Shown piece after piece: positions 19,038-20,961 of a stretch of DNA of 64,000 nucleotides. Below the pieces are notes generated by a model. That model saw only the letters and a list, made by a program, of their open reading frames with translations, ran no database searches and was not told where the DNA came from. The translations under genes were made by a program, and so were the position numbers. Source of the DNA: Shigella phage Z31. How positions within the stretch are numbered: the first letter of the stretch is position 1; each line of letters begins with the position of its first letter. The stretch lies in sequence record MN655999; one strand, written 5' to 3'.

Positions 19038-19042
19038 AAGTT

Positions 19043-19071
19043 GTTGACATAGAAAATTTGGTGAGTATACT
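19043..19071 (+). promoter_or_regulatory. sigma70-type promoter TTGACA-16-TATACT
   Basis: Consensus -35, 16-bp spacer, near-consensus -10 directly after ligase stop. Confidence 0.6.
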
Positions 19072-19101
19072 GAGCAGCATAAACCAACGGGTACTCACCA
19101 G

Positions 19102-19260
19102 CATCACTTAAGAGTCTTCTAAGAGGGTTTTTAAGTGATGTTCGGTATGGTGCGGTAGTGTTTGGTTGGGTATGGCTTTGTATGGTCTGGTAATGTAGGG
19201 TCGGGCGCGGTATGGGTGGATGGTAGTAGCCACGTTAAAAATCTACCAAGTTTCTAAAGA
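19102..19260 (+). repeat. repeat unit A: 10-bp-stem hairpin (CATCACTTAA...TTAAGTGATG) followed by GT-rich tract of GGTNTGG-like motifs
   Basis: Same hairpin and GT-rich tract recur at 20390-20930. Confidence 0.65.
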
Positions 19261-19323
19261 GTCTTCTGTTGAGGGTTCTTTACAAACAACTTAACAATAA
19301 ACTAAAGTGTGGAGCTAAATGCT

Positions 19324-19911
19324 ATGAAACTGTTAAATGTCAAAATCACTGGTACTCGTCCTTTCTTGAGCCATAACGATACGTTGTCAGACCCTTTAAA
19401 CCCTCTGACGAAATATCACAAGTCTTTGTCCAGTAAACGTAAAAAGACTGACGAAGACTATGCGCTCTTAGCAGAAAGTCAACTGGTAACTTCTTGTTAC
19501 TATGATGAGCAACTAGGTTTTGTTATGAACGGTGAGATGATTGAGGCTTGTATCAAATCTGGTGCAAAACTCAACAAACTTGGTAAGGTAATTGACCGAG
19601 CCATTATGCTGACAGATGTAGTCTTCCCAATGACTATCAAGAACTGCCCAGCAAACCCACAAGAACTTGCTAAGAATCCAGACTTTATCTACGCTAAGTC
19701 TGTTAAGATTGGCACAGCACGAGTTATGAGCTACCGTCCAATCTTCCGTGACTGGTCTGTAGATTTCGGTTTGATGTTCGATGAAGAGCAAATCACCAGA
19801 GAGGAACTTCTGATGGTTCTGGAAAATGCTGGTAACCTTTGTGGTGTAGGTGATTGGCGTCCACGCTTTGGTCGTTTTTCTGTAGAAGTTATTTCAGAAG
19901 GTAACGTTTAA
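19324..19911 (+). CDS. hypothetical protein
   Basis: ORF track trimmed to MKLLNVK (GGAG RBS); no recognised motif. Confidence 0.5.
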
Positions 19912-19913
19912 TT

Positions 19914-20354
19914 ATGAATACAAAAGCATTAGCAGCAAAGTTTAGTTACGGTGACACTGTATCACATTCTGAGATGGATACCTTCTTAGGTATTGTGAAG
20001 CCAACTTATCAAGGTGACATTGTTAAGTACGAAGATGAAATGAAGGCTTATGCACTTACACGTCTAAACCGACTTGAGAAGTTTATTGAGAAGCTTCTTA
20101 AAGAAGAGAAGATTTATCTGGTTGCTTCAATGGGTGTTGGCTATCGTGTGGTTGAACCTAAGCATCAAGCAACTATTGCAAAACGTAAAATGTCTGGTAA
20201 GATTGGTCGTGCTTTAAAGCAAGCCACTCAAGCGATTGAGAATGTGAACACTATGGCACTTAGTCATCAAGAACGTTCACGACTGATTGAACAGCAAAAC
20301 CATTTAGCTGCTATGAAAGCTAACATTAACAAGCAACGTAGAAAACCTTTCTAA
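19914..20354 (+). CDS. hypothetical protein
   Basis: ORF track 146 aa. Confidence 0.5.
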   Translation: MNTKALAAKFSYGDTVSHSEMDTFLGIVKPTYQGDIVKYEDEMKAYALTRLNRLEKFIEKLLKEEKIYLVASMGVGYRVVEPKHQATIAKRKMSGKIGRALKQATQAIENVNTMALSHQERSRLIEQQNHLAAMKANINKQRRKPF

Positions 20355-20364
20355 GTTGACTAGG

Positions 20365-20392
20365 TAGCCTCTTCGGAGGCTCCTTTTTAAAA
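20365..20392 (+). terminator. rho-independent terminator (AGCCTC-TTCG-GAGGCT + TTTTT)
   Basis: Perfect hairpin and T-run immediately after 19914..20354. Confidence 0.6.
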
Positions 20393-20930
20393 GGTCTTTA
20401 AACATGGTCTTTTAATAAGGTTGGGTCTGGTGTGGTAAGGTTGGGTAAGGTGCGGTTTGGCGTGGTTTTGTCTGGTGCGGTCTGGTATGGGTAGTTAATC
20501 GGAGCTACATTAAAATTCGATTACATCACTTAAGAGTCTTCTAAGAGGATTTTTAAGTGATGTATTGTGATGTATTGTTCGGTATGGTAAGGCAAGGCTA
20601 GGTCTGGTGTGGGTAGTTAGTCTCATCTACATTAAAATGAGACTCATCTTTTTAAAAGGTCTTTAAACAGGGTTTTTAATAAGGTGATGAGAAGTGGTGT
20701 TAGGTTTGGTGTGGTTCTGTGCGGTACGGTTAAGTAAGGTGAGGTATGGGTAGTTAATCGGAGCTACATTAAAATTCGATTACATCACTTAAGGGTCTTC
20801 TAAGAGGATTTTTAAGCGATGCTCGGTCGGGTTTGGTCGGGTTTGGTATGGTATGGTGTGGTAAGGTAGGGTTTGGTATGGAAGGATGGCAGTAGCCTTA
20901 TAAAAAATCTGCCAAATAAGCTATAAAATC
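20393..20930 (+). repeat. tandem complex repeats (~2.5 units of ~260 bp): GT-rich tracts plus two hairpin types
   Basis: Repeated blocks AAAGGTCTTTAAACA.GG.TTTTAATAAGGT, GGTNTGG runs, GTAGTTAATCGGAGCTACATTAAAATTCGATTACATCACTTAAG (20497 and 20757) and variant AGTCTCATCTACATTAAAATGAGACTCATC (20616). Confidence 0.7.
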
Positions 20931-20932
20931 TG

Positions 20933-20961
20933 TTGACAAGTCAGGTGTTATAGCCTATTTT
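20933..20961 (+). promoter_or_regulatory. candidate promoter TTGACA-17-TATTTT
   Basis: Consensus -35 with weak -10 upstream of 21006 gene. Confidence 0.35.

Follow-up and report, generated by a model that had tools for sequence, protein, structure and literature searches.

Within the 64,000 nucleotides of Shigella phage Z31 that we analysed (sequence record MN655999; this whole stretch is called the window in the following), the region between positions 19044 and 20961 of the plus strand is, almost beyond doubt, a type II VIPR (Viral Interference Programmable Repeat) system of the SUSP1 clade. VIPR is a phage-encoded, RNA-guided DNA-binding system related to CRISPR that has already been described in two preprints from 2026 (bioRxiv 10.64898/2026.04.26.720920 and 10.64898/2026.04.26.720927), and the copy in the window belongs to the clade in which the system was characterized. 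According to these preprints, the protein-coding part consists of Vipr, a small RAMP homologue of ~20 kDa with a single RRM, and the accessory gene vap, and the guide RNAs, termed vrRNAs, comprise 9-16 YNNGG repeats and end in an invariant tail, which is a pseudoknot in the SUSP1 clade. Each repeat is bound by one protomer, with GGY buried and NN presented, and a helical filament has been observed for the SUSP1 protein by cryo-electron microscopy (cryo-EM). In reading target DNA, SUSP1 Vipr omits one base for each repeat, and transcription is silenced upon binding, both in vivo and in vitro. SUSP1 carries one vrRNA upstream and three downstream of the genes, and RNAs of ~100 nt co-purify with Vipr (bioRxiv 10.64898/2026.04.26.720920). 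The plan of the locus in the window matches that published for type II, in that vipr and vap are enclosed by non-coding vrRNA regions, a single guide on the 5' side and an array on the 3' side.

The assignment follows from a match in the PDB, the conservation of contact residues and a confident structural model of the RAMP/Cas7-like type. The first gene of the two-gene cassette (vipr, 19324..19911, plus strand) encodes a RAMP protein of 195 amino acids, and the profile of its family matched one sole PDB sequence, 36pp, 'SUSP1 Vipr protein' (E 7e-80). In a phmmer comparison with 36pp_D (E 5e-127) the two proteins align over residues 1-195, of which 188/195 (96%) are identical and 7 differ. Nine of the ten cited RNA/DNA-contact residues, which concern GGY and the skipped target base (bioRxiv 10.64898/2026.04.26.720927), are kept, i.e. 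H17, K33, E71, M72, R138, C173, D177, W178 and R179. Position 175 is occupied by V; the paper cites T175, yet the aligned SUSP1 chain has V, too. An AlphaFold (AF2) model built from a 37-sequence alignment reached a pLDDT (predicted local distance difference test) of 94.4, and its closest solved folds are Csm3 (Cas7) subunits (Foldseek, E 2.5e-5; PDB copy to 2026-04-08). RAMP-like motifs including a C-terminal G-rich loop are also apparent in the alignment of the gene-1 family, which is large (525 matches in a word-indexed search), features no Pfam domain and is named 'hypothetical' throughout. The second gene (putative vap, 19914..20354, plus strand, 146 amino acids) occupies the vap1 position directly 3' of vipr and found no match in Pfam, NCBIfam, PADLOC or the PDB. 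An earlier, sequence-only reading of this DNA had stated that the two genes are without recognisable function. This holds for Pfam, PHROGs, PADLOC and NCBIfam, none of which provides a function for either gene, but gene 1 is identified as Vipr by 36pp. That reading also missed that, on the present analysis, genes and repeats are parts of one system in which Vipr is predicted to polymerise on guide RNAs of the GGY/NN pattern.

The non-coding part of the locus points in the same direction. For comparison we collected 29 related loci from IMG/VR via the ligase gene, added loci from GenBank and parsed all of them by fuzzy matching to conserved elements. The signal in the tracts is a strict 5-nt period, YNNGG, with GGY conserved and NN effectively random. 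Resolved by phase, 58 tracts show Y (T 0.88, C 0.12), two N positions with an information content of just 0.07-0.09 bit, a position taken by G, T or A (0.78, 0.15 and 0.07, never C) and a final G (0.98). Sequences are hypervariable among the 61 distinct tracts from related phages, which span 43-83 nt, and in 58 of them the length is 5n+3. These statistics equal the published YNNGG or GGY-NN definition of vrRNAs. The tracts had been described as consisting almost only of G and T, which overstates the bias, since their overall composition is G 41%, T 34%, A 15% and C 10%. The pattern departs widely from chance expectation. On the plus strand, runs of at least three GGTNN in register are confined to this region within the 64-kb window, and the 39-nt type A hairpin described below has 3 matches against 0 expected.

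Five units are present in all, one upstream of the cassette and four complete ones downstream, each comprising, in 5' to 3' direction, a long A/U-rich hairpin, a tract of YNNGG repeats and a conserved 3' pseudoknot tail. All elements are on the plus strand. Promoter P1 (19044..19071) reads TTGACA-16-TATACT, matches 11/12 consensus positions in a consensus scan and is kept in all related loci; it is the predicted promoter driving vrRNA1, vipr and vap. A type A hairpin (19102..19140) precedes vrRNA1 (19141..19249), which consists of 15 YNNGG repeats (19141-19215; the G/T-rich tract itself spans 19141-19213) and the 36-nt pseudoknot tail C2 (19214-19249) with the stems GTGG/CCAC and TGGTAG/CTACCA. 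The cassette ends with an intrinsic terminator (20366..20381, terminator scan), the T-run of which doubles as the 5' arm of the next hairpin, and the spacing from vipr to the terminator is constant at 1039 nt in all related loci examined. The downstream array starts with a type A' hairpin (20382..20420) and vrRNA2 (20421..20523; 14 YNNGG repeats, tail C1b), followed by a type A hairpin (20524..20562) and vrRNA3 (20563..20646; tail C1a). An exact tandem 10-nt duplication (GTGATGTATT x2.2, 20557-20578) at the 3' arm of the vrRNA3 hairpin gives rise to three degenerate pseudo-repeats and leaves this guide short, with 7 canonical repeats in register. A degenerate type A' hairpin with 7 mismatches to the consensus (20647..20685) precedes vrRNA4 (20686..20782; about 10-12 repeats, ~10 of them canonical, tail C1b), and a further type A hairpin (20783..20821) leads to vrRNA5 (20822..20916; 12 YNNGG repeats), the tail C3 of which has the stems AAGG/CCTT and TGGCAG/CTGCCA. 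Promoter P2 of the downstream early genes (20933..20961) shares 16 nt of upstream sequence with P1 (ATAAAAGTTGTTGACA / ATAAAATCTGTTGACA). The sequence-only reading had thus correctly picked out, at or near these positions, the promoter, the hairpin, the G/T-rich tract, both open reading frames (ORFs), the terminator, the repeat modules and the second promoter. It had counted ~2.5 downstream modules, in place of which four complete ones extend over 20382-20916, and the hairpin stem that it gave as 10 bp measures 15-17 bp.

Several observations indicate that these elements act as RNA. Type A hairpins have 16 predicted pairs, four of them G.U in the copy preceding vrRNA1, and type A' hairpins have 14. 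As several of the pairs are G.U, the hairpins fold well on the plus strand alone, and the folding energy of the block amounts to -192.5 kcal/mol on the plus strand versus -109 on the minus strand. The 3' tails occur in four paralogous forms, each with two interleaved stems that are kept via paired differences. The first stem appears as GTAG/CTAC, GTGG/CCAC or AAGG/CCTT and the second as AGTCTCA/TGAGACT, AATCG/CGATT, TGGTAG/CTACCA or TGGCAG/CTGCCA; a compensatory GTCG/CGAC is found in vrRNA tails of the E. coli satellite introduced below. We predict that the arrangement is an H-type pseudoknot, a call made from the paired changes across the four tail types and the satellite tails. Taken together, the periodicity of the tracts, the pseudoknot, the hairpins and the strand-biased folding argue for a plus-strand RNA with a periodic protein-binding motif. 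The earlier suggestion of a regulatory RNA leader was right in looking to the RNA level, as homologous tracts of SUSP1 were detected as ~100-nt small RNAs (bioRxiv 10.64898/2026.04.26.720920), but the RNAs are most probably guides and not a leader.

The association of protein and array reaches far beyond the relatives of Z31. A scan of IMG/VR with the exact pattern (GGTNN)x6+GGT, hence with a DNA pattern alone, retrieved at least 120 unrelated viral contigs. Among the matches listed, 48 contigs have two or more tracts, some up to 20, nearly all tracts of a locus are on one strand and split by short, locus-specific junctions, and an ORF of ~190-210 amino acids usually ends a few to tens of nucleotides 5' of the array on the same strand. 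By blastp the array-linked ORFs are homologous to each other and to gene 1, with E down to 1e-30. As the scan used the pattern only and nevertheless retrieved homologues of gene 1, the association between protein and array is derived from DNA pattern alone. On the unrelated IMG/VR contigs L131, L042, L053, L085 and L043, VIPR-like arrays become very large, with as many as 20 tracts, short and quite different junctions (e.g., GGAATGGTTTAATGAATTTAAT, or merely GGCTAATGGG) and a Vipr homologue ending a few to tens of nucleotides upstream; they offer useful comparison material for array processing.

A BLAST comparison of the locus with complete E. coli genomes uncovered a vrRNA-like tail in unannotated DNA of 63 chromosomes. 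The matches fall into an integrated element of ~10-12 kb with genes for a serine recombinase, baseplate, tape-measure and HNH proteins and a long non-coding region, in agreement with the satellite described in the VIPR preprint. Among 5,426 complete E. coli genomes, 505 contain the core of this satellite. Parasitism of the phage by the satellite is considered probable by the preprint authors, who inferred it (VIPR preprints). We scanned 15 satellite copies taken from the 505 satellite-bearing genomes for targets, applying the published 1-nt skip rule over the NN positions and using skips of 0, 2 and 3 as well as shuffled guides as controls. vrRNA1 matches an orthologous site in an ORF of ~280 nt at 25-28/30 positions in 11 of the 15 copies and at 22/30 in two of the first ten (other skips ≤19, shuffled guides ≤21), and vrRNA2 matches the tape-measure gene at 24-26/28 in four copies (other skips and shuffled guides both ≤20). 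The best predicted targets of these two guides (28/30 and 26/28) both lie in coding sequences of the satellite; predicted sites are, for example, L159 10465-10509 for vrRNA1 and L162 7339-7380 for vrRNA2. Coordinate arithmetic at three vrRNA1 and vrRNA2 sites placed the skipped base at codon position 3, i.e. the wobble position. About half of the 76 distinct guides from related phage loci score at least 80% on satellites. Self-targets were not found in the window, where the best match reached 67-75%. Because vrRNA1 and vrRNA2 are predicted to aim at satellite genes, the system most likely protects the phage from the satellite, and we regard defence of the phage against this element as its most likely role.

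The satellites themselves are not free of guides. Six of the ten satellites tested carry one, and vipr was found in none of the ten. In L154 (14900-15100), L156, L157, L158, L161 and L164, a vrRNA of the satellite is driven by a promoter of its own and ends in a pseudoknot tail resembling C2, with a terminator behind it. Locus L155 was rejected as an intact satellite and is a decayed satellite remnant.

Combining these data with the published work on SUSP1, the following course of events is the most likely one. Host RNA polymerase would transcribe the locus from P1, as its consensus sequence suggests, possibly with read-through of the terminator or with other starts. The transcripts would give rise to five vrRNAs of ~85-110 nt, each with 7-15 YNNGG repeats and a 3' pseudoknot cap, and the conserved hairpins preceding each guide would be cut, with RNase III as a candidate enzyme, so that individual guides are released. 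One Vipr protomer would then bind per repeat, burying GGY and exposing NN, and a helical filament would form as seen by cryo-EM for the 96%-identical SUSP1 protein. By analogy with SUSP1, the exposed NN would recognise double-stranded DNA, passing over one base of the target at each repeat, and transcription of the target would be blocked. At least vrRNA1 and vrRNA2 would be directed at genes of the chromosomal E. coli satellite that carries phage tail genes.

With the SUSP1 system the locus shares the 96% identity of Vipr, the position of vap directly after vipr, YNNGG vrRNAs with a 3' pseudoknot, one guide upstream plus an array downstream, and targets predicted in a satellite of E. coli, where the codon wobble position is the one skipped. 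It differs in having four downstream guides versus three in SUSP1, in the NN content, which is phage-specific, in the length of vrRNA3, which falls short of the published 9-16 repeats, and in two guides without a target in the sample.

Some of our findings weigh against the picture of a complete and functional system. All functional steps proposed for Z31 are carried over from SUSP1, and gene 2 is a candidate vap by its position and synteny. As a terminator separates this gene from the downstream array, vrRNA2-5 may depend on read-through or on other starts for their transcription. With its 7 canonical repeats vrRNA3 is below the published range, and its candidate target, a conserved intergenic site beside TTGACA, is matched at 16/20 positions (13/14 over the canonical repeats; other skips ≤15, shuffled guides ≤16); this target is marginal because its score equals the best shuffled-guide score. 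For vrRNA4 (best 17/24; other skips ≤17, shuffled ≤19) and vrRNA5 (best 18/24; other skips and shuffled both ≤18) no credible target above the shuffled level exists in the 15 satellite copies. Exact sub-patterns of 10-11 repeats from vrRNA1, vrRNA2 and vrRNA5 remained unmatched in IMG/VR. As regards processing, covariation is thin, with one compensatory pair in each hairpin type (CG/UA in type A, UA/UG/CG in type A'), and RNase III is a putative enzyme for this step.

Comparison of the related loci revealed a fixed grammar, P1-A-[tract-C1a-A' or tract-C1b-A]n-tract-C2-gene 1-gene 2-terminator-A'-[...]-tract-C3-P2, in which 1-3 guides precede and 1-4 follow the cassette; loci lacking the cassette have 1-2. 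The cassette is missing from nine loci, among them that of Felix O1 with its single unit between P1 and P2, and three more distant relatives have no unit and one promoter only. This lone promoter is a hybrid, P1-like in its left half and P2-like in its right half. The comparison of copy number across related phages had been proposed by the sequence-only reading and shows that unit number varies, with, for example, one unit in Felix O1 and none in some relatives; its view of a two-gene accessory cassette bracketed by repeat modules is borne out by the variable presence of the cassette. The shared upstream halves of P1 and P2 and the hybrid promoter suggest recombination between copies of the promoter as the means by which relatives acquire or lose the module. 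It is but one step further to regard the locus as a shuffling cassette flanked by promoters and repeats, in which P1 and P2 as well as the hairpin/tail junctions recombine, so that guides and the vipr-vap pair are gained, lost or altered in copy number. This idea is compatible with VIPR and deserves to be taken seriously, even though we rate its chances somewhat below even. It would account for the 16 nt common to both promoters, the hybrid promoter of unit-less relatives, the variation in guide number under a fixed junction grammar and the exact pentamer insertions or deletions by which adjacent tracts differ. For the PeSL cassettes of T4-type phages, Arbiol et al. are said to have proposed in 2010 that early accessory genes are gained and lost by recombination. 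These cassettes likewise feature early accessory genes between repeated promoter/stem-loop modules and are variably present; they differ in that the modules in the window are themselves guide RNAs.

Much less can be said for a cis-acting RNA leader, in which hairpins, GU tracts and pseudoknots would act on the flanking early genes by way of termination, stability or translation. The units do lie between two promoters and 5' of early genes, the single unit of Felix O1, in a locus without vipr, occupies the place expected of a 5' leader to the gene that follows, and C-poor tracts are unfavourable for Rho. A leader offers no rationale, however, for the 5-nt GGY period, the free NN and length steps of 5 nt, all of which are requirements of Vipr binding, nor for the fact that the guides of the clade match satellite genes at 80-93% under one spacing rule only. 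We therefore consider a leader function very improbable.

Still less probable, to the point of being negligible, is a replication origin or iteron array, in which the GT-rich blocks would bind an initiator or, alternatively, an R-loop formed from P1 on the G-rich non-template strand would prime synthesis with GGT serving as primase sites. A strong promoter is indeed situated 5' of a G-rich non-template strand, the locus resides inside a block of replication genes between ligase and dhfr/td, and the (G/T)GT motif resembles T7 primase sites. Iteron-type origins feature several direct repeats of 17-22 bp, nearly identical and bound by a Rep initiator encoded nearby, together with an AT-rich element for unwinding. 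Against this, the variable positions differ in every tract and at every NN so that there are no iterons, a Rep-like gene is not present, the block is dispensable, being absent as a whole from some relatives and single-copy in Felix O1, and the tracts are fully accounted for as vrRNAs of the protein encoded between them. GC skew does not turn at the locus either, although this test is uninformative for an origin because skew tracks the direction of transcription. The iterons or replication origin envisaged by the sequence-only reading have thus to be abandoned. Further hypotheses based on sequence, namely Chi-like or RecA-preferred tracts, arrays of T7-type primase sites, a G-quadruplex/R-loop origin, RfaH ops-like sites, arrays of RNA polymerase pause sites, a sponge for anti-Shine-Dalgarno or tRNA CCA ends and a TRAP-like ring-protein RNA, were dropped because none explains the fixed GGY, the free NN, the length quantised in fives and the linked RAMP gene.

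Having arrived at VIPR, it is instructive to compare the system with others that combine RNA repeats and a protein. With the filaments formed by Cas7/Csm3 of class 1 CRISPR systems it shares the RAMP/RRM fold with G-rich loop and thumb, one protomer per RNA segment of fixed length, periodic base flipping, and a variable guide joined to a structured handle. In contrast, the period is 5 nt and not 6, GGY is read in every segment, the guide is non-contiguous with 2 nt per repeat, and a single small protein suffices. A CRISPR-Cas locus proper was rejected, as the junctions are 75-nt hairpin-plus-tail modules and the variable parts patterned pentamers, without an array of identical repeats and unique spacers; the locus contains no cas genes including cas1/cas2 and found no match in PADLOC or Pfam. 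ToxIN-like type III toxin-antitoxin systems consist of tandem identical RNA repeats of ~36 nt, behind which come a terminator and the gene of an endoribonuclease toxin. Such a system was rejected as well, since the units in the window comprise 130-150 nt and are variable, the protein is a RAMP of the Vipr family and gene order differs. TRAP (trp RNA-binding attenuation protein) binds (G/U)AG repeats with 2-nt spacers, again a 5-nt period, as a closed ring with a role in attenuation and no guiding to DNA. VIPR and TRAP thus have in common that an oligomer reads a trinucleotide every 5 nt, and they differ in their unrelated folds.

Two features of the clade may have gone unreported, i.e. the conserved hairpins in front of the guides and orphan guides in relatives that lack vipr. 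Every guide in the clade is preceded by a conserved hairpin of 15-17 bp with G.U pairs, and neither VIPR preprint mentions hairpins, RNase or maturation. These hairpins are putative processing sites that would free single guides, with RNase III of the host as candidate enzyme, and would then be functional equivalents of the hammerhead ribozymes reported for other VIPR types. Concerning the second feature, Vipr was detected by tblastn in 129 phage records versus unit-like DNA in 230, and roughly 100 phage records appear to have guides without vipr. Intact guides, one or two in number, are retained between P1 and P2 in many Felixounaviruses whose genomes are devoid of vipr and vap. In Felix O1 (L003, 2440-2660), one intact vrRNA composed of hairpin, 12 pentamers and pseudoknot tail is found between two promoters, and the complete genome (L165, L166) contains neither vipr nor vap at E up to 10. 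For some orphan guides, which come from loci without the two-gene cassette, matches to satellite genes still reach 88-92%. A co-infecting relative might provide Vipr for these guides in trans, or the guides could be decoys that soak up the Vipr of a competitor. As decoys they would act like RNA anti-CRISPRs, and guide-bearing satellites without vipr would do likewise. That both features, hairpins as processing sites and guides used in trans or as decoys, constitute real biology not found in the VIPR preprints is a tentative proposal that we consider rather unlikely to hold in full.

VIPR represents a newly described way in which RNA reads DNA, a small RAMP protein turning a pentamer-repeat RNA into a gapped guide. 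An origin earlier than that of CRISPR has been proposed for it, and its very small size makes it attractive as a programmable DNA binder. The window adds nothing to this principle; what it offers is a natural case that is clean, delimited in full and equipped with five guides. VIPR was re-derived independently from sequence, by way of the pentamer statistics, the pseudoknot and the association of protein and array across unrelated viral contigs, and the 1-nt skip code and the targeting of satellites were replicated independently with guides other than the published ones. The loose ends raised concern the cutting of the array into guides and the role of guides in phages and satellites without Vipr protein.

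As to the genomic setting, the best match of region 18900-21100 among GenBank phages in a BLAST search is Escherichia phage HK3 (98.3% over the whole query), and matches are Felix O1-like myoviruses of the genus Felixounavirus. The plus-strand block around the locus comprises genes for replication and nucleotide metabolism, i.e. DNA polymerase, an HNH gene and ligase and, farther on, dhfr and thymidylate synthase. The GenBank record of phage wV8 marks 58-bp 'DR_4' repeats at the locus without interpretation, and the papers on the Felix O1 genome and on UAB_Phi87 do not mention the repeats of the locus in a search for the word 'repeat'. A 9-bp inverted repeat (TGGTGAGTA ... TACTCACCA, 19059-19099) flanks the -10 element and the start region of P1, is kept in relatives and could be an operator. 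Downstream of the locus, a helix-turn-helix regulator is encoded at 21566-21895.

Some further observations concern the remainder of the window. At Rfam gathering thresholds, 24 tRNAs and nothing else were detected; the 24 tRNA genes form a cluster on the minus strand (48512-53855), as is usual for Felixounavirus. An ORF of the HNH/AP2-like homing-endonuclease type (16498-17031) sits between the DNA polymerase gene and small ORFs 5' of ligase, and similar AP2/HNH genes are annotated in E. coli satellites. A non-coding region of ~0.8 kb (63080-63860) is dense in CTTAACA-type motifs, all on the plus strand, and holds 13 of the 45 matches to CTTAACA in the window, for the whole of which 17 are expected; tandem repeats of 31 nt and TATATAG repeats are found there, too. 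In the E. coli satellite, the long non-coding region (L154, 13300-16000) is filled with similar 'cttaaca / ccttcttaacc' motifs. They may be a signal for regulation, replication or packaging that is common to both and is copied by the satellite from its helper.

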